A DNA stretch of 60,952 nucleotides, counting the filler, from Sphacelaria rigidula (Eukaryota), in the NCBI GenBank assembly GCA_964200075.2. It is 8 parts of 8 records of this genome, joined end to end, with 100 filler letters (N's around TTAATTAATTAA, not from the genome) between each part and the next. Parts side by side here need not be neighbours in the genome. Positions count along the whole stretch, not along the records: positions 22,897 to 30,428 come from CAXNAA020014474.1; 7 more parts are not named here. The stretch is one strand, 5' to 3'. A program made the translations under genes and the position numbers. Positions 3,779-53,421 of this stretch are shown here, in pieces. The notes under the pieces are model-generated. The model worked only from the letters and a program-made list of their open reading frames with translations, was not told the origin of the DNA and did not search any database. Numbering within the stretch: position 1 is the stretch's first letter; each line of letters begins with the position of its first letter.

Positions 3779-4092
3779 GTTTTTGAGTTTTCTCGAGTGC
3801 TATTCTTCATTACTACCTGAAAGTGCTAGCACCGGTAGATTTAGGGGGAAACCGTAGGCCGTTCAAACTGCGGTGCCCAAGTTGGTGTTTTTCGGGCGAT
3901 ACGGACTAGATACCCCGTTTATCAGGAGAGTGTGTTTTACTGACCGTTTTTGGTCCAATAAAAACAGTTTTCCAGCTCTTCCGCAACGAAACGGTGAATA
4001 TTCAGATAAATGAATACGTATACAATTCTTCACAATAACGATCGAGATCGTCTTTCCCTTCTATACTGCACAGAGTCCTCCTACGATAGGGG

Positions 4093-4195
4093 ACTACGAT
4101 AGGGGGGGGGGGTATTTTGGGCCATTTGTTGCTCGAAATTCCGAGTCAGATCGTCGTTGAAAGCAGCAACGGTTTTTCGAACAAGCTTGTTGTGG
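4093..4195. repeat. Dispersed repeat (second copy at about 45364-45465)
   Basis: ctacgatagggg...ggtattttgggcca...cgaaattcc...tcgtcg...cagcaac is shared between two scaffolds. Confidence 0.7.
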
Positions 4196-5503: not shown

Positions 5504-6573
5504 TACTACCCTTATCCACCACGCCACTCCGCGATCCGTAACAGCTCACCCGGGGAAAACATGAGCGGATGAGCTACCCCCGGTAGCTCACCCCAGGGAC
5601 ACATGGTCGTGGCTCACTCACGTCATATGCCTAGGTCGCCGCTGGCCAACCCCGCGTCGCTTATGATGTAACATTCTTGTTCGAACGGATAGCGCCACAT
5701 ATCATTATATTGTAATGTTTTGCCTCACTCTTTGCGACAGGAAGAAAGTGAGCCAACACATATCCTCGTTCGCTTGGTCGGATGGTTAAAAAAGTATTAG
5801 TATTCAGTGTCTACGATGATCGACCGATCCATTGCTTTTGATCGGTTGGCCGCGAGAGTACGAGTCCATCTGGTCATGCATACGCTTTTCAAGTGAAATC
5901 GGAGGCGATTCAATAGATGCCTTCTGCTCGCCGTCGAGGGTTTAGCCCTTTGACCGCGAGGTTTGGCGATCTGATAAATCAGCATAATTCACTTTTTTTT
6001 CGGGTGTGAATGATGCCATTTGGAGACCTTTTACCCTCGCGATTAAAGGGATAAGCAATCGTGGCTCTCATAGCTCTCATAGCTCATCCAGGGCAAATAT
6101 GTGTAGCTCATGCATCTCTCATAGCTCATCCGGGGCAAACAGGCGTAGCTCATGCATCTCTCAAAGCTCATCTAGGGCAAACATGCGAAGCTCATACAGA
6201 TCCCATAGCACCCAGGGTTAAGATGAGTTCATGGGCTACGGGTTGGTAGCTCATCCAGGGGGGAAATTCGTAGCTTATGCATCTATCTAGCTCACCCAGG
6301 ACGAATCTGAGCTGATGAGCTACGGGTCGGTACCTCATCTATCGCAAACGTGCGTAGCTCACGCAGCTCTCACAGCTCACCCAGGAAGAATATGAGCTGA
6401 TGAGCTACGGGTTGGTAGCTCACGTACGGTAAACATGCGTAGCTCATACAGCTCTCATAGCCCACCCCAGGAAAAAAATGCGTAGTAGCTCATGTAGCTC
6501 TCATAGCTCACTAGGGAGTTGCGCTCGAAAAGAGCTAGCTCGAGCTGTAGGGAGCTGATCTGTCCGACGTGTG
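5504..6573. mobile_element. Partial hAT-like element with a GTAGCTCA/AGCTCACCCAGG subterminal array
   Basis: Dense degenerate AGCT-motif array (5540-5610, 6060-6550); right end GTCCGACGTGTG closely matches the terminus of the TSD-flanked element at 49041-50497; left TIR not found. Confidence 0.55.
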
Positions 6574-7532: not shown

Positions 7533-7632
7533 NNNNNNNNNNNNNNNNNNNNNNNNNNNNNNNNNNNNNNNNNNNNTTAATTAATTAANNNNNNNNNNNN
7601 NNNNNNNNNNNNNNNNNNNNNNNNNNNNNNNN
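7533..7632. other. Artificial scaffold linker (44 N + TTAATTAATTAA + 44 N)
   Basis: Six-frame stop linker; identical 100-bp structure recurs 7 times. Confidence 0.99.
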
Positions 7633-11212: not shown

Positions 11213-11753
11213 AGGAAGAACACTTTTATTTGTTGTAGTTTGCAGATAGATAGAGTCATCTCGTGAGTCGGAAAGTGTCGCGGTGGGCGTCAAACGCAAC
11301 CTTTGCAAGTAGCCTCCGAACAGTTGAAGGCTTGGGTAGGAGTTAAGGTTAGTTGTTAGCTCAGGTATTGTTGCGTACGTTCAGCAAACGCACGATGTTT
11401 TCATGTTCTTACAAGGGAAGCAGATATCCATTGATATACCCCCACTATTGCTGGTGCTCTATACACTCTTCCCTGCGTAACATCATGCAGGTGCTGTCGA
11501 TATCCAGCGGGCAGTAATGCCTTGCGATGCTCTGGTGGAGGCACAACATGCTGCGAAGATTCGTTTCGTCATCAGTTCCGACGAGGTCAAGTAGCGGATC
11601 AATCAATATACTTTAACCCAGTATCCATTGCCGAAGGTAATGCCCATCACCCTCTGCTGAAATATTTTGGTCTGGAAATCACGTTTTCGGCTGTCTCTGG
11701 AAGTGACAATACCAGAAATGAACGCAACTCATTGGAGGCTATAATCGAAATAT

Positions 11754-11964
11754 AAGATAATCAGCATGCCTCGGGCCGAACAGTGTTGGCAGGATGCAGC
11801 TCACCCTTTATGCGACCCGCCGAGCACATCACGGGGGTTCGCACTTGGTGATTGATCGCGAGCCAAGTTCGACGAAAACCCGGCGTGCTCCATCCCTGCT
11901 TTGTCGGGCTGCGAGGTCAATGGTCTTATGACTATGGCATGCAAGATCATGAGTACACTCCCCT
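11754..11964 (+). mobile_element. 5'-truncated copy of the ~500-nt C-tailed partner element
   Basis: Matches the 3' 210 nt of 30644-31140; ends gagtacactcccct. Confidence 0.85.
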
Positions 11965-15164: not shown

Positions 15165-15264
15165 NNNNNNNNNNNNNNNNNNNNNNNNNNNNNNNNNNNN
15201 NNNNNNNNTTAATTAATTAANNNNNNNNNNNNNNNNNNNNNNNNNNNNNNNNNNNNNNNNNNNN
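15165..15264. other. Artificial scaffold linker
   Basis: Same 100-bp N/TTAATTAATTAA/N structure. Confidence 0.99.
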
Positions 15265-17306
15265 CTACAAAGCCGTGATAGAGCACGCCGAGCTTTCGTC
15301 GGACCAAGCCAAGGCGCGCGCGGGGGGGGGGGGGTAGACTAGGATTCACACCTCCCCTCAAGGTGCCATGAAAGCTACAGAGTAACTGGTATTTGCGAAC
15401 CAAGAGGAAGTGATACATGGAAGTAGGCAACTGGCAGACACGCAGCAGTTGCCGTGGTGATTGATCGAAAAACACACACGAGCCTTCATCACCTTCTGTG
15501 GGAATACATCAAGGGTCGGACAAATAATGATTCGTCTCAAAACTACTTGGTTTTGAGTCGACTCGTGACGAATCAATCCCTCGGACTTATTTCAGCGTTG
15601 CGAGCCAGGTACACGCAGCCCAGTCACGTGGAATGGCGCAAACGCTGCGTGGATACCCCTTGGACCAGCGATCAACTCTGTACTCCCTTTTGGGCAATCA
15701 GGCCGAAGAAATCATGAATTTGGTGATTTTGAGTCGTGATGATTTGTCCTAACCGTGGAATACATAGAAATCATGACAAAATAAAAAACAAAAGATAATG
15801 ACCGTCCCTTTTCATGGCGTAGGACATATCAACTGCATTTGTCGTATGTGCACGTTGTAGTGGAGGGTGGTCATTTCTTCCGAGAAAAGAAGAAGAAGCA
15901 CGTACTGACTGTACTCAGTGATTTCACGATATTGTACTGTCTGGATTATACTGTAACGTGAATTCTTGTGAATCTTCCATAGCTACCTACGCAACCGCGA
16001 CCGCCGTTTGATAAATATTAACGTTGCTGGAAATACCTACTGCTCCCACGGGAGCTACGCCTCGGTCGAGCTATGGGTTTTGCTGGGTCGGAGCAAGGCA
16101 GCCTATGTTAAACTATCTTGGGAACCGTTAGCACCCTAGAACGGGGTGTTGGCTCTGCGTCAGCGCGGTGATTGGGTCCTTGCGGTGCTGTGGCTTGCTT
16201 TCATACTCGGCGATTTTCGCAATTTGACCCTGAGACAAATACCATGTGGAAAATTGAGGCCAGCGTTTATGGAAACGACACGCACAGCGAGAGGCGAGAG
16301 TGGGGTTTGGATCCCTGTCTGCAAAGTCAATTCTCACTGTGCCGTGGGTCCTTCGGGATAAACAACGGCACATAATAGCCTGATGCCCCGTGTTGCGCCC
16401 GGGCAGCTTATCGGTATTTCAAAAAGAGTAGCCGAGAAACACAAAAGCTCCGGGCCTAGCCCAAGTAGGCCGCTACTGTGCATGCACACAAGGCTTGTTT
16501 TGGTCGAAATCCGCTCCGTATGTCATCCAGGAGCTACGGAACTTAGCGTCGGCGCTACTTAGTATTAGCGTCTTTGGGCTGTCGGGTTTCCGCCTGTAAA
16601 ATCCATACCCTGGACAATAGAATACACATTCAAAAAGTGTGCTGCGTACAGTATCGACTACTGCGCCTATTGCAATAGACAATGGATTCTATACTGTACG
16701 CAGTACGTTTTTTTACAGTGGAATAGTTTGTCCAGGATGTGGTAAAATCACAAAAAAAAAGTACCGCAATGAGTGAGCCGTACTATCTGTTACGGTGCTG
16801 CCCTTTGGGTTCATAATGCGCACGTAAAAACATCAGGCGACGTCAGGTTGGCTTCTTCGAGGGCTGGAGTCAAGGGGCGTGCCGCCAGTGGTGATGAACG
16901 CACAAAGCCCGGCACTGTACAACATTCACCCCCACTTCGCTCTCAATGCCTGTGTGTTTGTGTGTGTTCTACGCTTACTGTGGAGCAGGAGGTCCGTGCT
17001 CAAAATATATTGTTTTGAATCAAAGCCAACAGATTTGGCTTTGACAAAAGAGCGACGCAACCAAGAGTTATGGGGGAAGTACTTTTGGACCACACTTACG
17101 ATACAAAAAATTATGTTACTCTGGGGAATTCTCGCCATTTTTTTTTGTGGCGAGCAAAACTATATACACTTTTGAAGTCTGCATTTTGGATCCACAACGT
17201 GGCATTACAAAAAAATCATGAACGGAAGTGAGGGATTTTTATTGAAGCGTTATTGTTCACCGCACAAGTAGTCTTATCTGCTCCAAGCAGGTTCATATGT
17301 GACTGC

Positions 17307-22796: not shown

Positions 22797-22896
22797 NNNN
22801 NNNNNNNNNNNNNNNNNNNNNNNNNNNNNNNNNNNNNNNNTTAATTAATTAANNNNNNNNNNNNNNNNNNNNNNNNNNNNNNNNNNNNNNNNNNNN
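22797..22896. other. Artificial scaffold linker
   Basis: Same structure. Confidence 0.99.
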
Positions 22897-23287
22897 AGCT
22901 TTCGGCCCGAGGCCTACTGATTATCTTGCATTTGGATGACAGCCTACAATGAGTTGCTTTATTCTGTGGTATCGAAACTTCCAGAGACAGCCATGGCTTT
23001 TACACTGCCTCATGGGTGTCTAACCGACAGGCAGTGGGGGGGGAATAGCTGCTAATACTTGGTAAGTCATCTTATTCATGAACCCAAGATTGAGTTACAC
23101 CGCAGTAAGTTGAATACTCCGGACGTATTCGATCATAGTGTCATTTTTGTTTTGTTGGTTCAGTGATTGATTGACGGTGGTTTGTGGTTGGTTTTGCTTC
23201 TCTTCTCGGGCACTAGCGAAGCATAACATGCCCAGGTACTCATCTGTGAAGTGAAAGGAAGATATCTATATATCTATATATATTTAT

Positions 23288-23650
23288 TACACCCTGGACA
23301 ATACAATATGTTTCCAATATATATTTGTCGATCAAATTGGGATTTTGCGATATATTGCCGGTGTAATATGTATTGGTACCCTTAGACTGCACACGTATTG
23401 TGCGCCCAATATATATTGATGTCGTGGGACTGCATGCATATTGCCCGACCAATATATATATATATATATATTGGTACTATTGGGTTGAATACATATTGTC
23501 CCATCAATATATATTGGAGCAGCGTGGGCGACAGCATATTACACCACCAATATATATTAGGGTCGCTTTGATGAGAACATACTGACCGGTCAATATATAT
23601 TGGGTCTGCGTGGGTGACAACGCATTGGCCGGTCAATATATAATAGATAT
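23288..23650 (+). mobile_element. Partial relative of the CAATATATATTG element
   Basis: Same terminus TACACCCTGGACAATACAATATG and same core palindrome, but different intervening sequence. Confidence 0.7.
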
Positions 23651-24000
23651 TATAAGTATTGTGTACGCTCTAGGAGAGATCCAGACGCGATGGATGCCGG
23701 AGCCCGTGCAGATTGGGAAAAGTTTTAAAGGGAGCCACAGAAGTTCGCGTGCATTACTCCGGAAAGTTGTCGAATGCGTTTGATATATATATATATATAT
23801 GTATACTGGTTAGAAAATATGGTGACAGAAAAGGCGACCCGGTATATATGCCTCCTGATACCTATCTGGCTACCGGTGCGAGGCCGCCCATCCCCTTTCC
23901 AGCATGTAGTATAAATATCTTGGCTGAACATCACGACGACAGGAAACGCGGGTCGATACGCGCCTTTCGGTACCCCTGTGGTCACCGGGGCTGTGTTGCT

Positions 24001-24947
24001 TATACCCTGGACAATACAATATGTTCCAATATGATGCCAATACTTTGTATTGGAGCCAGCGCAAATATCTTCCTTTCAATATATATTGTGTTGAGATGTC
24101 CGCGGAGATATTGAAGCAACGACATATATTGCTCGTGTCATGATCATGAAGTAATGTATGCCAATATATATTGGACATGCAGTTGCTCCGAGAATAAAAC
24201 ATTCAACGTATATTGTGCATGCCAGCCGTGTATATATTGAAGTGTCAATATATATCGAGTCTAGGCGATGCGTAGCATATTTTTTACCATGATATATATT
24301 GAACGCAAACCATGCAGAAGTATTGTTTTTCCAATATATATTGGGCACGCTGATCGGATAGCTATTGTTCAGCCAATATATATTGAACACGCTTGCGGAG
24401 GAATACATTGAGCATTTTCGGCATGTAAAATACGTCTTTGAATGGCGCCCGCGAACAAAGAACTGCGCACCATACTAATTCCAATACACTTTCCAATCTA
24501 TGTCGAAAATCAATATATTTTGCTACACCAACATGTATTGTGACCGTCGGTTCCCTCGTGTAGTATCCGCCCAACATATATTGGACGCATTGACGCACGA
24601 CATATTGGGGCGGCAATATATATTGGCGCTTTAGGTGTCGAGTATATTGAATCGTCAATATATATTGACCTCGGGTGGCAGCAAAGGTATTACTCGACAA
24701 ATATATATTGGTGCCTTCTCGCACCAACATAATATTACTCGGCCAATATATATTGAGGTGGCGCGTGTCGTGATATAGTGTTCGGTCGATATATATTGCA
24801 TGTCGCGAGCCTTGATATATTGATGGCACGATATATATTGACCCTCTCTCTTGTCATCATATTGCTCGCCCAATATATATTGACCACCCGACGCGTCGAT
24901 ATATTGAGCGGGCAATATATATTACATTTTGTATCGTCCAGGGTGTG
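24001..24947 (-). mobile_element. Second full copy of the CAATATATATTG TIR element
   Basis: Collinear reverse complement of 92-1051; both TIRs present. Confidence 0.85.
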
Positions 24948-25443
24948 ATATATATATACAAGGGGTTCGGCGGCTTCCGCCGCCACGCTCAATGAGATCG
25001 ATAGCCAAGGTACATGAGGACCGGTCATCATTGCTCGCAGTAGATGACGGAACAGATCAGAGCTTCAAGTGCAGTATATTGCGCTGTGTGCGTGTGGAGA
25101 CCCGTGTCCCGGGGGCAGGATATGAAGAAGAGGCTTGATGATGTTTTGACGATTTTACCGGTACGGTAGAACGGGCAAAATACTACCTCCACCGTCGAAG
25201 AACAGATACGAAGACACTCATTTACGTTTTCCACCCACAGCAACGGATAGGAACTCGATACCCGGGGACACAAAGACTTGCGACGGACACACACGAGTGT
25301 TCGCAACCATGCGTCCAGTACATTTGCACCGCAGAAACACCCATTGTACGGAACACGGTCCAGAAACAGCAACTGAAAAGGCATAAAATATTCATTCCCC
25401 CTCCTTCGTGGGCAACAACGAAGCAGGCAATACCCGCAGTGTA

Positions 25444-26241
25444 CTCCCTCTGGGCGGACTTATAAGCAAGGTTCGGACCAAAAGCGGTCTAACTCGGGCA
25501 TATGAAGGTCTTTTTCCGAACCGTTTCTGTTGTTTTTGGACCACCGCTGCGGAACGCACAGAACCGCTGTCTTTGAGAGGCCGCACCGAAAAAGTTCATC
25601 ACACACCCCAGCAGAAGTTGCTCGAAATCACCACCCCAACGTTTGGACCACCGCCCAAAAAAAGCCTTCGCATCTACTGGTGAGACATGTCTGCTGCTGA
25701 CAACGCCTCTCAGGGGCAAAAACGCAAGATTTTGGGTGATCTAGAGAGAGAAGAAGTCATTCGGTACCTGTTGACGCGCAGCGTCGATGGGGTGCTGAAG
25801 CGTGGTCTACGGTGCCCCAAACCGGGGATGATAATGAACTATCCCCCGCTTTTCGAGAGGGGACTCTTTATTTTTTTGCATCAAATGTCGTGCCCCATTC
25901 ATACGGGATATTCCGGGTTGTGAAACCTGTGACGGGGCTTGTTTATATGTCGCTGGGTACAAAAAAGCTGGATCTCCACCGAAGTGACTGACCAGGGGAT
26001 TTTTACGCACAATCTCCCCCCCCCCCCAACCTCATCTACTAGACTAACTGAGGCAAGCAACAAATGAGTACCCCCCCCCCTCCCCCAACCTCATCGATTT
26101 TTTTCCAATGTGGTACCTGATCATGTACAAACGTTGTCCGATGGTCCACAGTGCCCAGACGACCCGTTTGCGGCCATATCATACCAACCTTGCTTCTATT
26201 CCGTTTTTCCGAACCTCGCTTATGAACCCACCCAGAGGGAG
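25444..26241 (+). mobile_element. Internally deleted Tc1/mariner (Stowaway/DD39D-like) element
   Basis: TA|CTCCCTCTGGG...CCCAGAGGGAG|TA with ~34-bp TIRs; 25687-25805 encodes KRKILGDLEREEVIRYLLTRSVDGVLKRG, resembling the N-terminus of plant-type mariner transposases. Confidence 0.8.
26037..26081 (+). mobile_element. Very short 5'-truncated LINE tail insertion with TSD
   Basis: Flanked by CCCCCAACCTCATC at 26023-26036 and 26082-26095. Confidence 0.8.
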
Positions 26242-30428: not shown

Positions 30429-30528
30429 NNNNNNNNNNNNNNNNNNNNNNNNNNNNNNNNNNNNNNNNNNNNTTAATTAATTAANNNNNNNNNNNNNNNN
30501 NNNNNNNNNNNNNNNNNNNNNNNNNNNN
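30429..30528. other. Artificial scaffold linker
   Basis: Same structure. Confidence 0.99.
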
Positions 30529-30643: not shown

Positions 30644-31140
30644 TGGGGTTGGCGTCGGTTGGCGATGACGCTATAAATCACGCCAATCACTGCGTGAGGC
30701 AACCAGGTTACCGATTTGTTTTGGGCGCTTGCGTTTTTTTTGCGGTAACCATTATGGTGGTCAAGCTAGATCATGTTGTGCGGCGTGGGAGAACCTCAAC
30801 TCCGCACAAAGGGGATGATCGCACTACGTGGTGTTTATATGGTGAGACACCCATGAGGCAGTGTATAAGCCGTTGCCGTCTCTGGAATTGACAACACCTG
30901 AAAATGAAGCAACCCATCGTAGGCTGTCATCCACATGCAAGAAAATCAGTAAGCTTCGGGCCGAACAATCTTAGCAAGATGCAGGCACCCTTCATGCGAC
31001 TCGTCGAACACACCACGGCGCTTGGTGATTGAGTGCGAGCCTGGTCCGGCGAAAACCCGGCGTGCTCCGTCCCGGCTTTGTAGGGATGCGAGGTCAATGG
31101 TCAGATGACTATGGCATGCATGATCATGAGTACACCCCCC
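30644..31140 (+). mobile_element. Apparently full-length ~500-nt non-coding C-tailed element (SINE-like partner)
   Basis: Multi-copy across scaffolds; starts GGGGTTGGCGTCGG, ends GAGTACACCCCCCC; 3' 80 nt homologous to the LINE tail. Confidence 0.85.
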
Positions 31141-31213
31141 ATCCGCCTCGAAGGATGCATTGTCAATAGTCAAATGGCTATGGCAGGCAATAAATGAGAA
31201 CGCCCCCTCCCCC

Positions 31214-32738
31214 GTGGTGAGTTATCACCCACTCTGTTCAAGGAACATATTAATCACCTGGTCATAGCGATAGAAGCACCAAAGCAAAGATTTGAGGCGA
31301 GAGAAGACACGGCATCAGGATTGATGTTCGCGGATGATTTCGCGGGGATATCGGAAACACCAGAACGATCGCAGAAGAAAATAGAGAAGGCGCTAGAATA
31401 CACTAGGAGATGAAAAGTGACAGCGAACGTGAATGATTGCGCGGTAGTTGTATGCAACGAAGATAAGAAAAATCCGATAGAGTTCAAATGGAAGTGGGGA
31501 AAAGAGGAATTGCCGATCGTATACCAGTATACGTACCTTGGCGTAGACATGTCAGAAAGTTGTTATCGGGATGCACACATGAATGAAATAATCGAAAACG
31601 TTAAGGCACAGATAGGCAAGATGGACGTGACGCTAAGAGACTCGCACCTAGATACTACGAATAAGAGCTAAACTCTAATGAATGTGATTGTACCGAAGCT
31701 GGAATATGCGGGAGAAACATGGGAGAAGAACACGAAGCTGATGAAGAAGTTGGAAACAGTACAGATGACAGCAGCTAAGAAAGTACTTGGATGCTCGAAA
31801 ACGATGACTAATTATACAGCATTGAGAACAGAATTGGGAATTTATCCACTTCAAACAACCAGAGACACGAGAAAATTGAACTGGCAACATGATGTAAGAG
31901 ACATATCGAAAAACATATGACCAGCCATAGTTGAAGGGGCTGTATGAAAGAAAGTAACGAAATGACAGGCTGGAATAAGGTGGGATAGCGTAGTCAAGAA
32001 AGTATGGAAGGAGGTAGGAGGAAACCTAGAAGACCAGATACCGTCCAAAGGTGAATGCGGGGGGTACAACACTCAAGTACGAGACATGATGGAAATAAGG
32101 TAAAGAGAAAGACTACGGTGAAAGGTAGACGAGGCAGAACACCGGAAGATATACGGCGAGTTGAGAGAGGGGATAGGTATGGAACCATATCTGCATGGCC
32201 CAATAGACTCGGCGAAAAAAATGAAAATGCGATTTCGGGTGTGGGACCTGGACCTGCCAGAAAGGAGAAACATATATGCCAGAAGTCGAGTGGGGGAGGA
32301 ATTATATGCACAGAATTGCCCATGTGGCAAAGCAACAGAGAGTAGAACTCATATGGTGGCAAAATGTGACCTACACAAGGAAGAATGGGACTTGCTAGAG
32401 GGAGGAAAATGGGAAGTAAACGAAGGTCGCATATCAAAAAGGGAAATGTGGAAAGTGGACGAAGATGGTATGAAACCGTTTGGTGGGTTAGACAAAAGCG
32501 AGATAACGATCGCTGCACTAGGAGACAGGTGATGGCCACAGACGGCGAATCATGAAAGGGATAAGATACGTGAACATTTTTGTGCAGTGTATGGAAAAAA
32601 CAGAATAAGCGCCCAAAGTGGTGGAAGTGTCTCTTTTTGGAGTAGGAATGGTGCTCCGTCTCGAAAGGGATGCATGGTCAATGGTCAAACGGCAAAGACA
32701 AGCAACAAATGAGTATGCCCCCCCCCCCCCCCCCCCCC
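31214..32738 (+). pseudogene. 5'-truncated, disabled non-LTR retrotransposon (LINE): RT, C-terminal CCHC, 3' tail and poly(C)
   Basis: LSPTLF, GLMFADDF, YTYLGV, CPCGKATESRTHMVAKC; several stops and frameshifts; ends gtgctccgtctcgaaaggg...gagtatg followed by a C-run. Confidence 0.93.
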
Positions 32739-33017
32739 AAACCCATCTGGCATTAATCCAAACAACACATCTTGAAAACCCCACAAANNNNNNNNNNTTG
32801 GGGGGGGAATGGGGCTCCGCCTCGAAAGGGGTGCAGGGGAAAAGGTCAAACGGCAAAAAAAAACAAAAAATGAGTTTGCCCCCCCCCCCCCCCCAGCTAT
32901 GGCATGCATGATCATGAGTACACACCAGCCTTGGTGAGACACCCATAAGGCAGTGTGGAACCCGAGGCTGTCTCTGTCCAGAAAGTGAGTATTCTGGAGA
33001 TTCCTATTATTGAACTC

Positions 33018-34960
33018 ATGGAAAATCTCAAAGCGTCTGAAGAGCGTCAAGAGAGAAACGATGCTCTACTTCGCGAGTTGTTGAGTGCTTGCAAAGACGC
33101 CTAGCGCCGCGGGCAAGAGGCCCCTGCTGGCGCAGACGAGAATGAGGCAGGCGGTGTCGAGGCTGCCGCCGCCAGCAGTCGATTGGAGACCGTTGCTCGA
33201 CAAAGAGGAGTCCCACACAGCAGTGTCTTTCCCGCTTCTGACGTGGTATTTGTAAGAAGAGGTGGACTATCATATGATAGCAGTAATCATATGGCTGGCG
33301 AGTCGGGGAATTTAGTTGTTCATGATTTTACGATGTCGCCGTGTGATGTATGCCATGTAAAGTCGGGGGTCCCCAAATTCGACGGCTCCGATCGTTCATT
33401 TTCCCTCTTAACATTCAAGTTTGAGGAGTTCACCAGGCGAGTCGGGTGTTTATTTGTCTTCCAAAGCGCAATCAATGATATAGTGTTAGGAGCTCCCGTT
33501 TTTCACGGCCATTTTCTTGTCAATACGTCAGGTATTCCTGTATCGGAGGTCAAGATGAACGTTTTGGCGTGGACGTGTTTGGATGAGAATGTCTCGAAGA
33601 CTGACATTCTGACAAAGATCTTTCGACTGCAATCCCCTGGTGCTGGTTGGAAGTTCCTTGTGGACTGGTACTTGATCAAGTCGATCAGTGTGACAGAGGA
33701 ATAGACGGAGAAAATTCAGAACATTACCATGCATAAGGGTGAAGAGCGAAGGAGGTACTCCGCCCGGGTAGATGAAATTTCTAGCGTTTTGGACTCTTTT
33801 GGAGAATTGAAGTCTGCGAATGAGAGTGTCCGCAGAATCGTGAGAGGCCTGTCTGACGATTATTCTTTACAATGCAGAACTTTCATGTTGAAAGAATCCC
33901 GCCAGCGTGTGGAGAGCATTTCAAGGCAGAGATACCTTGACATCCCAAAAACAGAGAAGGCCGGTCAGACTCTATTACCTAGTGTTACGTCTCATGTAAA
34001 CGACAGCAGTAGAACAGGAATATTTTGGGATGGTCAAGCTCGTGGAAGGAAGGGAGGAGCTCGTGGCGGTGGCCGCGGTGGCAGCGGCCAAGGTATTGAT
34101 ATTGATGGTAACGACAACAATAGCAGCAATGCTGGAGGAAACAACAGCGGTAGCCGTCACCTGTACACTCCCTCTTCAACTCCAAGGGAAGACCTCCGAG
34201 GAAAATGAACAAGGTGCAAGATGCCCGGGCATTACTCGGCGGACTGTCGTGCGCAAGTTATCCCCTCCCCGAGTCAGATGCCTTCTACTACAGATGGCAA
34301 CGGTGAGAGAGTTCCTTGTGTCGCTCTTGATCCGGTTAGTGCCTGCAGTGCCGAGGATAGTCAAGAGTTTCGATCTGAAAGCTGTGAGTTGGAAAAATGG
34401 CGTGCGGATAGTGCTGCGACTTTTCTCACGACCGGTTCAAATGAATTGATGTGTGATACTTATCCATCCCATGATAAGGTTATGAATGGAAATACGACCT
34501 TACTTCATGTTGAGCGCGTTGGTACGGTAACTATTGCTTTTCCGAGTGATACAGGAGATGTGGCATTGAGGCTTGAAGAAGTCGCTGATGGACCGGAGTT
34601 GAAATTCAACTTGTTCTCTTTGGTTGTTGCTCACCAAAACAAATTACACTTCAAGCCAGAGGAAGATGAGATCACACTCAGTGTTCTCGACGGCAGACTC
34701 AAGTTTGCGTTCAATGGCTCGTCCTTCTGTAAGCTTGGCTACCGGATAGACTGCAATGACGTCATTTCCCCCTCAAACGTTTTGCCCACGACGGAAATAC
34801 AGGTGAAGCCTTTTCCTGATGAGGCGCCTACTACTGCTGACCCAGTTCTTGCCCCCGGTGATTGCGTATCACCCACGCGTATTGATGTTTAATGATTTTC
34901 ACCGTTTGTATGGGCATTAAAACGAATTTATTTCGAACGAAACAGCGAAAGCACTTGTTG
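33018..34960 (+). pseudogene. Ty1/Copia gag-protease-(pre-integrase) remnant
   Basis: Gag (PKFDG, AWTCL, IVRGLSDDY), GR-rich linker, decayed zinc knuckle RCKMPGHYSADC, protease WRADSAAT and LKFNLFSL; frameshifted IDVNDFH..YGH; cut off by a C-tailed element. Confidence 0.85.
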
Positions 34961-34962
34961 TA

Positions 34963-35231
34963 AAGTAGCGATACCAGAAAATAAAGCAACTCATTGTTGG
35001 CTGTCAACCAAATGCAAGGTGATCAGTACGCTTCGGGCCGAACAATCATAGCAGGATGCAGCTGACCCTTCATGCGATTCGCCGAACACATCACGGCGCT
35101 TCGCGCTTGGTGATTGGTTGCGAATCTGCTCCGGCGAAAACCTGGCGTGCTCCGTCTCGGCTTGTAGGAATACCAGGTCAATGTTCTTATGACTACGGCA
35201 TGTACTGTCATGCGTACACCCCCCCTCTCCC
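34963..35231 (+). mobile_element. 5'-truncated C-tailed partner element
   Basis: Matches the 3' half of 30644-31140. Confidence 0.85.
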
Positions 35232-35242
35232 GCCCCTTTCAA

Positions 35243-35747
35243 GGATTGGCGTCGGTCGGAAACGACGCTGTGAAATACGCCACTCACCGCGTAAGCTAGG
35301 CAGCCACGTTACCGTGGGCTGTTTCGCTGGCGTTTTTTTGGCGGTAACCATGAATGGTAGTCGAGCTAGATCACATTGTGCGGGATTGCAGAACCCGAAC
35401 TCCGCGCAAAGGGGATGATCATGCTTCGTAGTGTTTATGTGATGAGATGCATGAGGCAGTGTAAAGGCCGTGACTGTCCCTGAAAGTGGCTATACCAGAA
35501 AATGAAGAAACTCAGTGTAGGCTGCCATTCATATGCAAGATAATCAGTACGCTTCGGGCGGAACAATCATAGCAGGATGCAGCCGACCCTTCATGCGACT
35601 CGCCAAAGATATCACAGCGCTTCGCGCCTGATGATCGATTGCGAGCGTGGTCCGGCGAAAACCCGGTGTGCTCCGTCCCGGCTTCGCAGGGATGCGAGGT
35701 CAACGGTCTTATGACTACGGCATGCAGTGTCATGCGTACACCCCTCC
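35243..35747 (+). mobile_element. Full-length C-tailed partner element, directly after the previous copy's C tail
   Basis: Collinear with 30644-31140 from GGATTGGCGTCGG to GCGTACACCCC. Confidence 0.85.
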
Positions 35748-37789: not shown

Positions 37790-37970
37790 TCGGCAGGGTT
37801 TGAGCTTCGCTAGTGAACGAATTCATGAAGTACTGGGAAGAGGGAATGACCGCCATGATGGGCATGTTGTATTATTGGAGCTGGGAAATAGAGTCACACC
37901 CAAGAGATAGAGAGAAGCAGTAGTAGTAGAGCTCTACACTTTTTCAAGAAAAGAGACAAGAATGACCCGA
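37790..37970 (+). pseudogene. LINE RT N-terminal fragment
   Basis: VNEFMKYWEEGMTAMMGMLYYWSW...P..*REAVVV..FKKRDKNDP fits the start of a non-LTR RT domain (..E..KY.......L.N.I.....P..W....V..LFKKGD..DP). Confidence 0.6.
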
Positions 37971-38059
37971 CACTTTCTAATATACCCCCCCCCCCCCCCC
38001 CCCCCCCCCCGACCCCACACCGCCACCCCCCGTACGGATGGGAGCAGGAGCGGTTGTGG

Positions 38060-38159
38060 NNNNNNNNNNNNNNNNNNNNNNNNNNNNNNNNNNNNNNNNN
38101 NNNTTAATTAATTAANNNNNNNNNNNNNNNNNNNNNNNNNNNNNNNNNNNNNNNNNNNN
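38060..38159. other. Artificial scaffold linker
   Basis: Same structure. Confidence 0.99.
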
Positions 38160-38338
38160 CCCTGCTCCGTCTCGAAAGGGATGCGTGGTCAATGGTCAAA
38201 CGACTAAGGCAAGCAACAAATGAGTACGCCCCCCCCACCCTTCGCGGTGCTCCGTCTCGAAAGGGATGCGTGGTCAATGGTCAAACGACTAAGGCAAGCA
38301 ACAAATGAGTACCCCACCCCCCCACCCCCCCCCACCCT
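38160..38338 (+). mobile_element. Two head-to-tail LINE 3' tails, each with a C-run
   Basis: Near-identical 70-nt tails at 38163-38236 and 38245-38338. Confidence 0.9.
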
Positions 38339-38387
38339 CCTCAGCCTGGTCCGGCAGAACTCCGGCGTGCTCCGTCCCGGCTTTGTA

Positions 38388-38920
38388 GGGGCGGATTTCC
38401 TATGGAGTTGGGGTGGGTCCTGCTGAAAATCACGCCACTTAGTACCTAAGCTAGGCAACCAGGTTACCGATTTGTTTCGCGCGCTTGCGTTTTCTTTGCG
38501 GTAACCATGATGGTAGTCGAGCTGAATCATATTGTGCGGGGTGGGAAAATCCCATCTCTGCGTAAATGAAATGATCGTAATACGTAGTGTTTCAACGGTG
38601 AGATACTCATGAGGCAGTGGATAAGCCGTGGCTCTTTCTCGAAGTGGCAATACCAGAAAACGAAGCAACTCATTGGAGTCTGTCATCCAAATGCAAGGTA
38701 ATCAGTACGCTTGGGGCCGAACACTCTTAGCAGGGCACAGCTCACCCTTCATGCGACCCGCCGAACACACCACGGCGCTTCGCGCTTGATGATTGATTNN
38801 NNNNNNNNTGATTGCGAGCCTGGTCCGGCGAAAAACCGGCGTGCTCCGTTCCGGCTTTGTGGAGATGCGAGGTCAATGATCATATGACTATGGTATGCAA
38901 GATCATGAGTACACCCCCCC
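38388..38920 (+). mobile_element. C-tailed partner element (variant 5' end; contains a 10-N gap)
   Basis: Collinear with 30644-31140; ends GAGTACACCCCCCC. Confidence 0.85.
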
Positions 38921-39570: not shown

Positions 39571-40455
39571 CTGGAACGTAGGGCGGAACCCTGTTGTTTT
39601 TGGGATGCGAGCCGTAACGAAAAACAAAATGTGAGAGGCTGCCTGGGTCGGCGGTTATTGGTCGCGGGGATGAGATGCGTCCCTCCACCTTTTGTCGCCA
39701 CCTAGAAGTTGTTGTTGACTCCAGAAACGTTTTCGCCTGGTCACCCGTCACCACCTTCGTGTTGGTTCTCCCGGATGTGCTATTCGCCGTGCCCTAGTGG
39801 CTGATTCGTTACGCTCTACGTGCGGTGCTCGGATTTTTTCCAGTGTATTGGAAAACAAAGTCACCAATGAAAGCAAATGCTGGCGTGAAAGACCGAACAT
39901 TTTGCATTCTGCACAGAGACGGGGGCTGAGATGAACCTCGCCAGATGGCGGCAACATCTTGTGATATGTGGTGCTTTCGAGTGCCAGGAATGGATTCCTG
40001 TAAAGAGATCGGGGTGTACACTTGTTGACCTGAGGTCCGAAGCCTAGTCAAGCCATTGCGTAGCTTGAAGAAAGCCTGAAAAAATCTATTACCTGCAAAT
40101 GACTTGGCCGCTATCGCTTTAGAGTCCAAATCTAGTAGCACGCTCGAAACGACATAGCTTTCCGAACAACGTACCGTGCGATCTGGCGTTCCCACAGCGG
40201 CGTTTGAGCTCAGGGTACGGGACAGCGGTGGAAATTAGCAGAAACAAGCGTTTGCCAGTATGAAGACATTCGACGTCTGTCCACCTCACCTGCATTAAGA
40301 GGGTCATGCGCTTGTGTGTAGATATGGCGTGCGGCAGTTTGCGGTAGCTTTCCAACAGCTTCGGCATCGTGTACCTGCGTGTCATTGCAAATTTATTGAA
40401 CACAGCTTCCCACGGAGAGGGAGGATATCGCTCAAGTACACTCCCCCTGCTTTTC

Positions 40456-40692
40456 GAAACGGTGCTCCGTCTCGAAAGGGATGCGTGGTCAATGGTCAAA
40501 CAACTAAGGCAAGCAGCTGTTGAGTAACACCCCCCCCCCCCACCATCTCAACAAACAAAAACAACACCAAAATCGTAGAACACAAGCAGCGTACTTANNN
40601 NNNNNNNCTTTTGAAACCGGGGCCCGGCTCGAAAGGGGTGCGGGGTCCAATGTCCAAAACCTAAAGCCACCCGGCGGTTGGTTCCCCCCCCC
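40456..40692 (+). mobile_element. LINE tail insertion in an intron with 13-bp TSD (duplicated across a 10-N gap by assembly)
   Basis: CCCCCTGCTTTTC at 40443-40455 and 40693-40705. Confidence 0.75.
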
Positions 40693-40903
40693 CCCCCTGC
40701 TTTTCAACTACAGAACGTGCTCCCAAATTTTGTCGAACCCTTGATGACTTGTGACTAGAGCAATTACAACTCGCGCTCATCGACTACAAAGCACCTAGAT
40801 GCCTACTCAAATATCATATATAACAATATCAGTCTTCTTGAAACAAGAACAACGGGCAGTGGATCTTGTGGAAGCAGGCCATAATTTTCCCACGACCTCC
40901 TAC

Positions 40904-44400: not shown

Positions 44401-45690
44401 ACAAAGAGCCCGCGGACCAACCCTTAACGAAGCATAATCACAAACGTGGAATTGTCGGGCGATTCACAGATTCGAGTACTTCGCGCAACACATCTATCAT
44501 GACATGGAATCGAAAAAACGTTACAAAACAGGGGTTTGCATATAGTTGTTTTCCAATCTTCAAACTTGAGGTAGAGGCGCTTCCTAAGCACGAACAATAA
44601 ATTTAAATAGAGAGCAATCTAGAGAGCACACCGTAGCACAGTCACTGTTTCTTCAGCGTTCCCCTCGCCCCCTTTGTTCAGAGAGTGTTACCGTTATGTT
44701 CACAGTGGAATCGTCAAATTTCGTCATCACGGCTGGATTCCTCGGAGGTCGGTCAATGCGCGACAATCGATTGATCAATTAAATGGAGAGGAAGAAAGTC
44801 TAAGGTCTGAACGACAGCAACTGTGGATGCATAAGAAGACGGGATTTCTTCAGTCCCCATCGTTAGCCGCAGCGGACGAGGCAAAATGACCGTCGGGCGG
44901 AATAAACACCGTGGACCACGAAGGCAGGCTAGCCGCTGATGGCTCGAGGGTGCATGGGCTATCGACTTGCGTCCGTCCATCAACAATATGGCCAAAGGTA
45001 CAGCCAAGCCTCTCTTCCGCAAGAAAAGCAGTGAGATAAACGTTGACGTTGTGGCTGCCACTTGCTCCTTTATATCGATGCACGTGTGCAGATGGTGGGG
45101 CTACGCTGGCTGAGGCCAAACCTGTTGAAACCTGACTTTCAAGCGCTCCGGCATTAAGTAGGGCATGGTTGCACGCTCCCTTTCATGGTTGCACTTTTCG
45201 TGAATCCGAACGGTCTGCACCCTCAAACTAAAATCGGCCGCGGATTCGAGTGGATGCTTAACTCTCGTGAAACCCTCCCCTGCCATCCCCGGGTCAGAGG
45301 TCTCACTATTTGCAGACGCCCGTGGTTGCGGGAGGAGAACAAAAAAAGCATTTACCTAGTCATCCTACGATAGGGAGGGGGGTATTTTGGGCCACTTCTT
45401 GCACGAAATTCCATGTCAAATCGTCGTAAAAAACAGCAACAGTTATTCGAACGAGCTTGTTATAGATAAATAACGCTCATTCATACTGCTTGACACAGGT
45501 TTGAACAAAATACAAGCGCACCGCGAGTATGACGGGTAGTCTGACACATTTATGAGCCTCTTTTTTCGTGCAACTGAATACCCCCCCCCCCTCCCCCTGT
45601 CGGTCCCCCCCTCACCTCTAGACTCTTGGGTTGGCGTCGAGTGGCAACGGCGCTGTAAAACAAGCCATCAAAACCTAGACAAATGTACAG

Positions 45691-45790
45691 NNNNNNNNNN
45701 NNNNNNNNNNNNNNNNNNNNNNNNNNNNNNNNNNTTAATTAATTAANNNNNNNNNNNNNNNNNNNNNNNNNNNNNNNNNNNNNNNNNNNN
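45691..45790. other. Artificial scaffold linker
   Basis: Same structure. Confidence 0.99.
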
Positions 45791-46679: not shown

Positions 46680-46930
46680 CTGAATAAAGAATGAATAAAC
46701 GAAAAAAACGAATGAATGAAGGAGTGAATGAATAGATGAAGAGGTGAATAGATGAGTTAATGAATGACTGAATGCATGCATGAAAAACGAAAAAACGAAT
46801 AAGCGAGTAAGCAACTTGATAGATAAATAGGTGAGTAGGTGAGTAGGTGAGTAGGTGAATATATGAATGAATAAATAGATGAAGAGGGGAATGAATGAAT
46901 GAACGAACGAACGAATAAATGAACGAATGG
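46680..46930. repeat. Degenerate (GAAT)n microsatellite
   Basis: Direct reading. Confidence 0.85.
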
Positions 46931-47393
46931 AATCTGTTTCAGTTTTACTTTGTCGCAAGAGGGTGTACATGAGGGCAAATCATCATCACGAGATCATCGT
47001 GTTCGAGAACGGTTCCAAATTGAGAACAAAAATACCCTCAGTTCAAAGAAGTCCAACGGCAGGTTGTACCCCACCTCCAGCGCATCAGGGAGTCGAGTTA
47101 AGCTGAAACTAGAGCCCGGAAGGTTCGTGCGACGTGATTCAATCGTGCACACACAAGATGCTGACTAAAGGCAGGGCCGTGTAGGTGAACGACGGTGTAT
47201 CTGCGATGTGAACCCGCTGTTCGCTTGCTTGCTTGCTTCGTCGTGTCAGCCGATCTTTCCCTTCTCTTTTTCCGGGTTCCGACGCAAAACTTCAAACGGG
47301 CCAACAAGCAGAATAGTACACGCGCAAAGCATACCCGCAGTGGCATGTTCATCATCCTCCATACGTCTGATTCTTCCACACTCACCTAGGTCT

Positions 47394-47539
47394 GTGTGTG
47401 CTCATCATCCTGCATGCCGCAGTCATTAAGACCATTGACCTCGCATTCCGGCAAGAAACCGGCGTGCTCCATCTCGACCTTGTAGGGATGCGAGGCCAAC
47501 GGTCTTATGAATACGGCATGCAAGATCATGAGTACACAC
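47394..47539. mobile_element. Head-to-head pair of partner-element 3' ends forming a hairpin
   Basis: Left ~55 nt is the reverse complement of the tail; right ~85 nt is the sense tail. Confidence 0.75.
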
Positions 47540-49040: not shown

Positions 49041-50497
49041 TACACGTCGGACGAGTCATTACTGGTCGAAAGAAGTGCGCTCGTGGATGACTTTTAAAAA
49101 CACAACGAGCAATGACTCATGTGCTCGAGTCATCACTTCTTTTTACAACGAGCAATGACTCGTGGACTCGAGTGATTACTTCTATCTACAACGAGCAATG
49201 ACTTGAGTGGTCGCCCGGTTATTTTTTTTTCCACAACGAGCAGTGACTCGGATGTTCGCCCTATTAATTTTTTCCACAACGAGCAATGACTCGAGTGCTC
49301 GCCCTATTATTTTCTTCCACAACGAGTAATGACTCGAGTGCTCGCCCTATTAACCCTCTTGGGACTGACCCCCGACTAACACGGGGCTGACCATATGTTG
49401 CTGAAATAATGAATAACAAGTCAAGGAGCGACGTGCTCAATCACGGCGAGGCGAAATTTTATCGACCAGACCCGAACGACCAGCGCGGGGACTGTTGCCG
49501 AGTGTGATGTCACTGCAAAGATCGTGTGGGGGGTCTATCCCTGGCCCAGATAAGCCTTCCCAGGTTTTCAAAGCCAGGATGATCAGAGCATGGCTCATCG
49601 TACTACTTGCATTCAGTATAGCGTTCCCGGGATTTCCCGGGAGTTTTGGGGGTCGCTAGCATGTACTAAACCGTAGTAATTACACTAACACAGGGTGGAG
49701 TGGGAAAAACCGGGAAGGAGTGTACATACGACAATGTGGGCATTTTCATGAGGCACTGAACACAGGTGGGCCATGAAAAGACAGAAGGAGCTACCGTCAT
49801 GAATTCTGCTCATCCCTTTGTCGATGACTTGCAGAACAGTGTGAACATGTATGTAGTTGGCAGGGATGAACAAGCTCTGTATAGGCAGCCGATCTCCGTC
49901 GCTGAGAACTGCCCAGAACGTGCAACGGGGTATGCAGCGGCAGTTGTTGCTGCACTCGGAGAGGCGTACTGCACTGTACTGTACTGTATATATGTGCGCC
50001 ACAACGCCCATACCCGTCGAAGAGAATTCGTCGCATGCAACAAAGAGGGAAATGGCGGGCCACCCCGACCACGGAGGGCTGTGTGGCAAGGTGTTGGGGA
50101 CAATAATATCATACAAAGCCACAAGTGGGGGGCGGTCCGCCGGTCGCCGCATCATGTTGAAAGCTCTCTACGGCGACACATACTGCTTGCTACATCAGAT
50201 GTACATCACCTAATGCGCACCCTGCACCTGAAAATAGATTGGGTAAAACTTTCGGTCTCCCTCATAATCCTGCGGTTACACACGCAGGTTTTCAACAACA
50301 TGCCACTGTTTCGTGCAGACGCCAAACACGTCATTCCTAACCAGCCTCATAAGTCGTTTTGGAGACCCGGTCCCAAAGTGGTTAATTTTTTCCACAACGA
50401 GCAATGACTCGAGTGCTCACCCTATTAATTTTACGGCCAACGAGCAGCTCAAAGAGTGCGAGTGCCACGAGTCACACTCGTGCTCGTCTGACGTGTG
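49041..50497. mobile_element. hAT-type non-autonomous element with a 43-45-bp tandem array
   Basis: TIR TACACGTCGGACGAG / CTCGTCTGACGTGTG; perfect 8-bp TSD AAAACCAC (49033-49040, 50498-50505); ACAACGAGCAATGACT units at 49102, 49145, 49188, 49233, 49276, 49319 and 50393. Confidence 0.88.
49354..50381. mobile_element. piggyBac-like non-autonomous element nested in the hAT array
   Basis: TTAA|CCCTCTTGGGACTG ... CGGTCCCAAAGTGG|TTAA; the host array resumes in register after it. Confidence 0.8.
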
Positions 50498-50793: not shown

Positions 50794-51344
50794 CTTTCCG
50801 AGGAGGGACGTTGGCAGGCAGTAGGGAAGGGAAAGGGAGGATAAGGGTCAACACGGTGTGGTATAAAGCGATACCACTAGAGGAACGATGTGCACACCGC
50901 AAAACAGGTTTTGAGGCACGGGTAGATTCTATTGATGAACCGAATACGCGCGTTTTCTTGTTCAGGGGGATTGACTCCTTTCAGCGCCGACGCGTCCCCG
51001 TGGTGAAACGCCCCGACTGTCACCATAAGGGTGACGAAAAGGTGTGTCCGATTCCTGTCACATGTGTTGCGTTTTCTCTTCCAAGTACCTGATTTCCACC
51101 GTCGAAAGCGGGTGTACATGAGTGGACGAAAACGAGTCGACTGAGTTTGTTTGACAAGGGCTGACGGGGTGCGGGGAGTATTGATAGTCATGACCCAATC
51201 CACGAGCCCAAAATGCGAGGCATGTACGGGGGAAAGTTGGTCCGATCCCTTGAGACTAGTAGACCATTAGACAACGGACTCGTCTCGAGGAAGGGGAGGA
51301 GTTCAAATTGTGACAAAGCAACCACTCCCCCCCTTCCCCGCGTG

Positions 51345-51815
51345 CTTTTTATGGGATAAACATGATGGTGGTCAAGCTAGAACATATTGTGCGGGGTGGA
51401 GAACCCCAACTCGGCGCAAAGGGAATGATCGTACTACGTAGTGTTTAGATGATGAGACACCCATGAGGCAGTGTGTAACCCGTGGCTTATCCCTGGAAGT
51501 AGCGATACCACAAAATGCAGGAACGGGTTGTAGGCTGTCATCAATTTGCAACAATAATCAGCACGCTTCAGGCCGAACAATCTCGGCAGGATTCAGTTCA
51601 CCCCCTCGTGCGACTCGCCGAACACATCACGGCGCTTCGCGATTGGTGATTGATTGGGAGCCTGGTCCGGCGCAAAACCCGAAGTGCTGCGTCCCGGCTT
51701 TGTAGGGATGCGAGGTCAATGGTGCGCTGGCATCCAACATTTACAAGTACAGCCCCCTCGCGCGTGGTCAATCGTCAAACGGCCAAGGGAAGCAACAAAT
51801 GAGTACCCCCCCCCC
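51345..51815 (+). mobile_element. C-tailed partner element fragment plus a short LINE tail, in the WDR33 intron
   Basis: 51345-51723 matches the partner element; 51760-51815 matches the LINE tail followed by a C-run. Confidence 0.8.
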
Positions 51816-52948
51816 CGCGCGCGCGCGCCGTCGTGGGATTACTCCTGACACGCCCCGAAATCACTTCTACCACCGTCCGTGTTTAAACCCGCCATGAACA
51901 GCACTGCAGCTGCATCCAAACGCGCTGTACCGTACTGCACTGTACTTTACAATAGCAACGCACTCCCGTGTTTTTGTTCCGAATGGTCGGTGTCACCTCG
52001 CCGTGCAAAACTTGACCACCTACCCGCTAGCTCGCAATTGTTCCGGGGTCATTTAGAAGTAGAGTGTACCTTTTTCGACAGAGGGATGTATGATCCCACG
52101 GACAGTACACATTGCCCACTCTTTGGCAAGTAAACACCAACACGTTGAGATACTTTGCGCTCAGATCGGTGGGACAGGGTGATTGGGGCAGGTTCTCGAG
52201 GTGCAAATCGTTGGTGCGGATCGCAGGTAGACTTGGAGCTCTGATATGTTTCTTCGACCGGCCGTTGTGTTTCCGCTGGGTTCCGTCGTTACATTTTGAA
52301 ATGGCAAAAACAAAAAAGGTTTTTCGATACCCGACTGAGCATGGTTTTCGGATGGTGCCTCTGGCCGGCGTGCGCTGTGACTAGGGAAGGTATGATGGAA
52401 TTCCGACGGCCTCCATGAGGGACTGGGGGGTGACTAGGAAAGAAATTATTTCAAACTATATACGTGGCTGCTTCCTGTGTACGTTTAGCTTTTCAAGCCC
52501 AAGCAGGCAGGGTACAGCGGCGGATGAGAAGAGAATCCTCTTTCGTCTTCCGGCCTTTCGAGGCAAAAACATTTATTTTTCTTCTTGCAGCGGTGTTGCA
52601 AGTGTCCCTGGTTGTAGTACCTGAAGAATTCCGAGTGAAAATGGTAATTTGAGGGAGTTCTGCCATGCCTTGCAAGTTCCGGATATTTGGTAGGAAAATC
52701 GTACCGTTTTGAGGCAAATTCGCCAAAGGCGTACCTTTTCTAGTTATGAACAAAGGCCTGAAAAAAAGCATACTCACGAGAACACCCCTCCCAAGAAAGA
52801 AAAAAAAAAGTTGAATACAGCCTACATTGATATAGGACACACAGTAGTACAGTCATTCCAACCAAAACAAGAACAAGAATACTTTTCGTACTCGTAGCGA
52901 AACTGGAACAACTGCATCCCCCTTGTAACCTCCCGCGTCGTGGGTCAC

Positions 52949-53098: not shown

Positions 53099-53217
53099 CT
53101 GGACAGATGTATTTTCCCGCGTCAAATATTGAAGCAAGAGAGGGAGTCGGGGGATATCGGATCAAGGGGGGGGCGGACGGGCGGGCGTTCCTTCGTTGTT
53201 TAGCCTTTCATTTTGGT

Positions 53218-53256
<39 letters not shown>

Positions 53257-53321
53257 ATTAACATACAAACCAGAAAACAAAAACCATTTACCTTTCTCCC
53301 CCAAAAAACCAAAAACGAAAA

Positions 53322-53421
53322 NNNNNNNNNNNNNNNNNNNNNNNNNNNNNNNNNNNNNNNNNNNNTTAATTAATTAANNNNNNNNNNNNNNNNNNNNNNN
53401 NNNNNNNNNNNNNNNNNNNNN
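53322..53421. other. Artificial scaffold linker
   Basis: Same structure. Confidence 0.99.

Follow-up and report, generated by a model that had tools for sequence, protein, structure and literature searches.

C-tailed LINE fragments and their target-site duplications at C-runs in a brown algal genome

In a stretch of DNA from Sphacelaria rigidula, short fragments with a run of C's at their end are bordered on both sides by the same few nucleotides, and these repeats begin inside a C-run. This raises the question whether the repeats are target-site duplications (TSDs) of a retrotransposon, and whether their position points to an endonuclease with a specificity for G/C-runs, as had been proposed in a preliminary description of this DNA. 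The repeats are best explained as TSDs from target-primed reverse transcription of a brown-algal RTE-X-type LINE and of a non-autonomous element of ~500 nt mobilised by this LINE, a reading to which we assign a probability of about 0.8.

A C-tailed LINE and its non-autonomous partner

The window, meaning the whole stretch of 60,952 bases that was analysed, consists of eight slices of ~7.53 kb each, which are separate loci; the sample is thus one 61-kb window in 8 slices. The slices are joined by linkers:

7533-7632, 15165-15264, 22797-22896, 30429-30528, 38060-38159, 45691-45790 and 53322-53421: linker N44-TTAATTAATTAA-N44, seven identical copies

Several slice borders cut LINE or partner copies or their C/G runs, and three further runs of 10 N's (32788, 38799 and 40598) look like scaffold gaps. 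The DNA of the window is rich in repeats, and its C/G homopolymers are far above expectation, CCCCCCCC being found at 146 positions versus 1.8 expected. Runs of at least 10 nt comprise 15 of C/G versus three of A/T, and the longest C-run is C35. Arrays of 42-43-nt units with the palindrome CAATATATATTG lie at 90-1050 and 23300-24950 and are mutually inverted (87-90% complementary, arms of 124-284 nt). More tandem repeats were seen at 49090-49400 (43-nt units), 58860-60040 (234-240-nt units) and 6050-6510 (42-nt units), together with an array of 8-nt units similar to TGAATGAA at 46700-46935.

The inserted pieces derive from the 3' terminus of a single repeat family, for which a 16-mer gave 9 matches versus 0.47 expected. 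Among 290 stop-to-stop ORFs of at least 75 aa, Pfam identified one domain, a copia-type Pol_BBD (34209-34889), and no RT domain was matched in these ORFs; the RT piece of the LINE was located by frame reading and tblastn. It lies in the longest copy:

31213-32738 (+): longest LINE copy, with the second half of RT, a CCHC motif, the ORF end and a C21 tail

Positions 31213-32625 match full-length proteins of 1360 and 1328 aa with a single ORF (best match E 4e-168, 60% identity; second E 2e-142). In these full-length relatives, P0001 and P0002, an APE-like endonuclease is followed by a reverse transcriptase within one ORF (Exo_endo_phos at 170-392 and 142-383, RVT_1 at 740-989 and 710-959, respectively), while the window itself carries, by tblastn, equivalents of aa 880-1360 alone. 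All relatives with names come from Ectocarpus sp. CCAP 1310/34. Their C-terminus, …NGAPSRKG.V.NGQMT.ASNK (…KASNK), is encoded by the window as the same peptide, and the DNA at the LINE end reads …AAC AAA TGA GTA (C)n. The ORF stop lies 3 nt ahead of the tail and is followed by GTA and the C-run, so the LINE is practically without a 3' UTR. The fragments are between 34 nt and 1.5 kb long, and each of them terminates in …GAGTA(C)n (tblastn, blastn and alignment), i.e., they combine variable 5' truncation with a common 3' end. The identity of the element and its C tail are thereby observed directly.

A second family (family B, the non-autonomous partner) was traced over ~500-520 nt and has no similarity to the LINE protein. 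Its last ~59 nt are common with the 3' end of the LINE (family A) at 81-83% identity, its copies end in 4-7 C's, and their 5' ends coincide near TTGGCGTCGG. The window gave 0 matches in Rfam and tRNA scans, and no source for the 5' head of the partner emerged from them. The copies are:

30646-31140 (+): family-B copy with a short C6 tail
11690-11963, 35243-35744, 38411-38919, 51340-51757, 22901-23030 (-), 15265-15321 (-) and 45630-45690: other family-B copies

Between LINE families with an overall identity of only 47%, the last ~20 codons are conserved, and the partner has them as well; for this reason, a recognition site within the coding end of the LINE is suggested. A conserved 3' RNA structure was not supported by a single-sequence z-score of -1.09 and a consensus of 13 copies (-2.93 kcal/mol, double change in 1 of 11 pairs).

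At 47396-47537, two partner 3' ends are inverted and meet near 47447-47449, with no C-run at the junction, an arrangement that resembles twin priming. At 32932-35227, a partner copy is split between consensus ~325 and ~337 by ~2 kb. The insert contains a gag-like (copia-like) ORF at 33105-34889 with two in-frame stops and the Pol_BBD domain; neither flanking LTRs nor a protein match were found for this ORF. Gag-only non-autonomous copia families are listed for the Ectocarpus transposable element library (PMC12477816).

Target-site duplications around the fragments

The loci at which short direct repeats surround LINE fragments or adjoin a C tail are the following:

26016-26027 (+): pre-existing target run of C12, its last 5 C's within the maximal left TSD
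26023-26036 (+): left TSD copy CCCCCAACCTCATC
26037-26081 (+): extreme 5'-truncated LINE copy, 34 nt of ORF end (…AACAAATGA stop, GTA), C10 and one T
26082-26095 (+): right TSD copy
38160-38241 (+): older LINE 3' fragment with C8 tail, cut at a slice border
38242-38338 (+): second, tandem LINE fragment (38242-38311), impure tail CCCCACCCCCCCACCCCCCCCC and right TSD (38326-38338)
40443-40455 (+): left TSD copy CCCCCTGCTTTTC
40456-40541 (+): 5'-truncated LINE copy, 74 nt with C12 tail
40542-40683 (+): assembly artefact, with unreliable post-homopolymer sequence, 10-N gap (40598-40607) and error-ridden second reading
40684-40705 (+): C14 tail read from the other contig and right TSD copy (40693-40705)
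4081-4112 (-): 12-nt tandem duplication CCCCTATCGTAG, copies 1 nt (T) apart, directly past a C11 tail
31109-31135 (+): left copy of a 27-nt exact repeat, right copy at 32897-32923, enclosing the composite 31136-32896
51758-51816 (+): LINE 3' fragment with C11, 4 nt past the C5 tail of a family-B copy

Three of these pairs had been named in the preliminary description, and all of them are present. The 14-nt pair (26023-26036 = 26082-26095) and the 13-nt pair (40443-40455 = 40693-40705) are exact, and the tail fragment of ~45 nt described between the former resolves into 34 nt of the element (26037-26070) followed by C10 and T (26071-26081). The third pair, placed approximately at 38232 and 38330, was found as the 9 nt CCCCACCCT (38233-38241 = 38330-38338), and its maximal exact repeat comprises 13 nt (38229-38241 = 38326-38338). 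Each of the three pairs encloses a 5'-truncated 3' fragment of one LINE family with a C tail. As had been proposed, the pairs are TSDs, and the left copy begins inside a C-run that was already present on the strand of the tail. At 38 kb, the following copy used the tail of the older fragment (38160-38241) with its ACCCT as target, and this stretch (38229-38241) is its left TSD.

Left flanks were searched copy by copy for the longest terminal stretch that is found again past the 3' end. Such flank repeats reached at least 13 nt in 4 of 17 copy models, while none of 216 mismatched pairs of left and right flanks exceeded 10 nt. A scan for exact direct repeats (at least 11 nt, within 300 nt) yielded 129 pairs, mostly satellites, four of which, read in the same direction as an adjacent C tail, start with CCCC; none does so in the reverse direction. 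This unbiased scan also revealed a fourth C-initial duplication of 12 nt (4081-4105). The C-initial TSDs (14, 13, 13 and 12 nt, all exact) each start with 4-8 C's, and four of the five confident TSDs begin with the tail base on the tail strand. Flanking TSDs, as for LINEs of the APE type, are therefore present in these 4 of 17 copy models with at least 13 nt and in the further 12-nt case, and it is confirmed that the short repeats are real TSDs of C-tailed LINE copies beyond chance. A first TSD scanner had found the 40.5-kb case alone because the tails are interrupted. No paralogous empty sites were found within the window for the flanks of the copies at 26037 and 40456. In 13 of the 17 copy models, a flank repeat above the control length is absent; these are mostly family-B copies that are ~80% alike and are presumably too old for a convincing TSD.

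The 12-nt duplication on the minus strand adjoins a C11 tail that belongs to a related 3' end. It has the appearance of a TSD whose insert was aborted or comprised the tail alone, and it may also be an ordinary slippage duplication. The fragment at 51758-51816 has, by direct sequence reading, an imperfect TSD candidate, CCCCC(T/G)CGCGCG, with 11 of 12 positions matching. The 27-nt TSD (31109-31135 = 32897-32923) starts with CTATGG and not with C's, and it shows two extra bases (AG) past the tail. Inside it lies a composite: a 67-nt LINE fragment (31146-31212) with a C5-T-C5 tail is directly adjoined by the 5' end of the 1.5-kb copy with its C21 tail.

The interval between 40443 and 40693 (~240 nt) is not all insert, as it holds a 10-N gap and a second reading of the same copy; the true insert at 40.5 kb is ~86 nt (element and C tail). 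The sequence after the gap (40608-40683) aligned to the copy before it with a score of 37.5, whereas the best of 300 shuffles reached 17.5, and at the other such gap (32788) the corresponding stretch (32798-32878) scored 51 with a shuffle maximum of 17. The post-gap duplicates at both gaps (40598 and 32788) share private variants of the copy before the gap. The sequence right after the first-read C-run was not recovered as a true flank (scores of 9.0 and 8.5 versus shuffle means of 7.9 and 7.6). Base errors in the duplicates around the gaps (32739-32894 and 40542-40697) lean towards G/C and are accompanied by indels, and the error-ridden duplicates probably arose by homopolymer slippage at contig ends. 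For the 40.5-kb TSD, the flank repeat itself remains valid, although its two copies lie in two contigs joined by scaffolding.

Irregular C-rich sequence was also seen near other slice ends. At 37810-38031, an internal RT fragment (equivalents of aa ~693-745) runs into C26 and a further C-rich stretch. The C-rich part measures 59 nt and replaces 57 nt of coding sequence, which may continue afterwards at an RMG match. A tail-only insertion accompanied by a deletion could account for this, as could a base-calling artefact close to the end of the slice. At 53140-53321 (-), a T-rich degraded LINE 3' end precedes the C35 run, and another partial 3' end follows it and passes into a CCCGCCCGTCCG-C8 stretch at the slice end; this sequence is probably of low quality.

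Preference for C-runs and its possible origin

The targeting of C-runs that had been proposed from the repeats was assessed at 19 5' junctions of both families, placed by alignment and by eye and therefore neither independent nor blind. A same-strand run of at least five C's ending no more than 20 nt upstream was present at 13 of these 19 junctions (background 2.0%), and a corresponding run of at least five G's at none (0 of 19; background 2.0%), so that a strong association with C-runs, specific to one strand, is supported. For the 13 of 19, the binomial P is 2.6e-18, a value that refers to hand-placed and non-independent junctions. The other six junctions have no run of at least five C's within 20 nt.

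Tails of older copies make up at least 8 of the 13 target runs; seven were recognised from their position and one from its similarity (score reached in 6 of 500 shuffles). For the target runs at 26016 and 40443, similarity to old tails was not significant (the score was reached in 243-325 and 151-164 of 500 shuffles, respectively). The C-run pattern is largely a re-use of older tails, and since older tails serve again as targets, head-to-tail arrays are found (38160-38390, 31109-32738, 34973-35744 and 51340-51816). A single event, or the retrotransposition of a composite, may lie behind some tandem arrangements. Because the 27-nt TSD lacks a C start and is followed by two extra bases, insertion is also possible away from C-runs. 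The families are accordingly not strictly site-specific, as copies do not all lie in one target repeat: six of the 19 junctions and the 27-nt TSD are outside C-runs. A preference for C-runs in tail orientation, with a stagger of 12-14 nt, is well supported.

The second nick had been predicted to fall about 13-14 nt from the first, and the maximal TSD lengths of 14, 13, 13 and 12 nt, which are strikingly uniform, agree with this. As the tail and the C's of the right TSD run into one another, the lengths can only be given as limits (9-14, 8-13, 5-13 and 8-12 nt), and in two cases an interruption of the tail bounds the C part of the TSD (T at 26081, A at 38324). Such lengths would fit if the first nick falls within the run or at its edge and the second follows at a distance of 12-14 nt. 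In the 26016 case, seven C's are unduplicated, so the nick need not sit at the run edge. On the other hand, the C part of the TSD is inseparable from the tail. The first nick might thus be at the 3' edge of the run and give a primer that is not G-ended. A single T stands between the C tail and the final 4-5 C's at four places (26081, 31206, 45592 and 4093(-)). It is not predicted by simple annealing; a C>T substitution, an impure RNA tail or a base added without template where primer and tail meet could explain it.

The following course of events would account for this footprint. In the RNA of the element, the ORF stop codon would be followed by GTA and a terminal stretch of C's, and its preferred target would be a C-run on the strand due to carry the sense strand of the element, often the tail of an older copy. 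The APE endonuclease would nick the opposite strand within or at the edge of the G-run, and the freed G-ended 3'-OH could pair with the C tail and prime cDNA synthesis. The second strand would be cut ~12-14 nt downstream, and fill-in would duplicate both the C's and 8-9 nt of unique sequence. The C tail would not stem from ordinary polyadenylation and would instead be copied from the C-run of the donor, with slippage and the C's of the target perhaps adding to its length. The repeats and the strand-specific association with C-runs are direct observations, from which we infer the position of the first nick inside the run, the G:C priming and, further, whether the endonuclease or the annealing of primer to template is the seat of the preference.

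On the latter point, the preference might arise from priming: nicks would be unselective, and only G-ended 3' ends would anneal to the C tail and be extended. For L1 priming, complementarity between primer and tail matters besides the preference of the endonuclease. Selection at priming predicts the same footprint of C-runs and TSDs, and the 27-nt TSD without a C-run and with two extra bases shows that nicking and insertion are possible away from C-runs. The sequence holds no evidence against it, the footprint being the same as that expected from a specific endonuclease, and we consider its chance to be slightly short of even. In the earlier proposal, the endonuclease itself would be specific for G-runs, like the L1 endonuclease with TTTT/AA. 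Strand-specific enrichment at C-runs and four C-initial TSDs with a uniform 12-14 nt are in line with this, while one TSD outside a C-run and six of 19 junctions without a run argue against it, and the proposal appears rather doubtful. Annealing is rated somewhat likelier than endonuclease specificity because insertion outside C-runs occurs.

If a G-run-specific nickase with a fixed stagger of 12-14 nt were combined with a templated C tail, a self-reinforcing cycle of homing to tails could result, which we regard as a tentative idea. The C's of the target would then join the element's own tail and lengthen C-runs (up to C35 here), longer C-runs would become new preferred targets and give rise to tandem arrays, and the 12-nt 'empty' duplication at 4081-4105 would be the footprint of two nicks without cDNA synthesis.

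Head-to-tail arrays might alternatively be single events in which the RT leaves one RNA and continues on the C tail of a second one, and the upstream C-run would then not be a target. The composite at 31136-32896, in which a 67-nt fragment with its tail and a 1.5-kb copy with its tail lie within one 27-nt TSD, is compatible with such a switch, as is the curators' remark in the supplement of PMC12477816 that the partner 'can be present in tandem'. Nevertheless, the tandem unit 38242-38333 has a 13-nt TSD of its own and the C-runs at 26016 and 40443 have no recognisable element sequence ahead of them, which makes switching improbable as the explanation of the arrays. That repeats and C-runs are sequencing or assembly artefacts is very improbable: two 10-N gaps do adjoin C-runs with an error-ridden duplicate each (40608-40683 and 32798-32878) and several slice ends fall within C/G runs, but the cases at 26023, 38229 and 4081 lie in uninterrupted sequence with unique flanks, and the same type of tail and TSD is described in an independent curated library (PMC12477816).

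Significance and comparison with known systems

L1 has a natural counterpart in a LINE whose tail is a homopolymer of C. As the tail would not come from polyadenylation, templating, slippage and primer pairing are needed to explain tail and target choice, and such a LINE could help to distinguish, in target-primed reverse transcription, the specificity of the endonuclease from the annealing of primer to tail. It also accounts for features of brown algal genomes such as thousands of C/G homopolymers, tandem arrays of LINE and partner, and assembly breaks at runs.

Human and other mammalian L1 elements insert at TTTT/AA nicks, where a T-run primes on the poly(A) tail. As in L1, the TSDs of the LINE described here have the base of the tail at their start and are in the range of 10-20 nt, element and run share one orientation, and tails of older copies serve again as targets. 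Unlike L1, the tail consists of C instead of A, there is essentially no 3' UTR (stop, 3 nt, tail), and the LINE has a single ORF and would belong to an RTE-related clade. Microsatellite-targeting LINEs of the R1 clade insert into a simple repeat that matches their own terminus and are strictly site-specific. The match between target repeat and element terminus is also found here, whereas six of 19 junctions and one of five confident TSDs are away from C-runs.

The closest known elements are those of the Ectocarpus library (PMC12477816), which contains RTE-X LINEs and the non-autonomous RTEX-N1_Ec32 of ~600 bp (published length 607) with more than 6000 copies and a 3' end conserved with RTEX-1/2. 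In its Suppl. 3, RTEX-1_Ec32 is annotated as 'single EN-RT ORF; (C)n 3'' with a 'C-rich' TSD, RTEX-2_Ec32 as '(C)n termini/TSD', and RTEX-N1_Ec32 as '60 bp 3' end 83% RTEX-1_Ec32/RTEX-2_Ec32' and 'can be present in tandem', again with a 'C-rich' TSD. The window LINE is like RTEX-1/2_Ec32, as annotated there, in its single EN-RT ORF (here from full-length relatives), its (C)n 3' terminus and its C-rich TSD. Likewise, the partner and RTEX-N1_Ec32 both share ~60 bp of the LINE 3' end at ~83% and occur in tandem copies; the partner was traced over ~500-520 nt compared with the published 607. With a (C)n 3' terminus, a C-rich TSD and a partner sharing 59 nt at 81-83% all found in the window, its two families fit RTEX-1/2_Ec32 and RTEX-N1_Ec32, matched by their description in the library, from which the name RTE-X is also taken (PMC12477816).

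Other Ectocarpus LINEs in the table of the same library carry (CAA)n tails (RTE-1/2_Ec32) or (CA)n tails (CRE-1_Ec32), with no TSD entry in that table (PMC12477816). The element described here resembles these entries in having no poly(A) and a short repeat tail directly past the ORF end, and differs from them in that its tail repeat is mononucleotide. Result listings of literature searches contained no report on C-tailed LINEs beyond PMC12477816, and its main text does not treat targeting ('C-rich' has 0 occurrences there). The C tail and the C-rich TSDs are thus already known from the entries for Ectocarpus RTE-X elements (PMC12477816), and the mechanism by which this pattern might arise is put forward here as a proposal.
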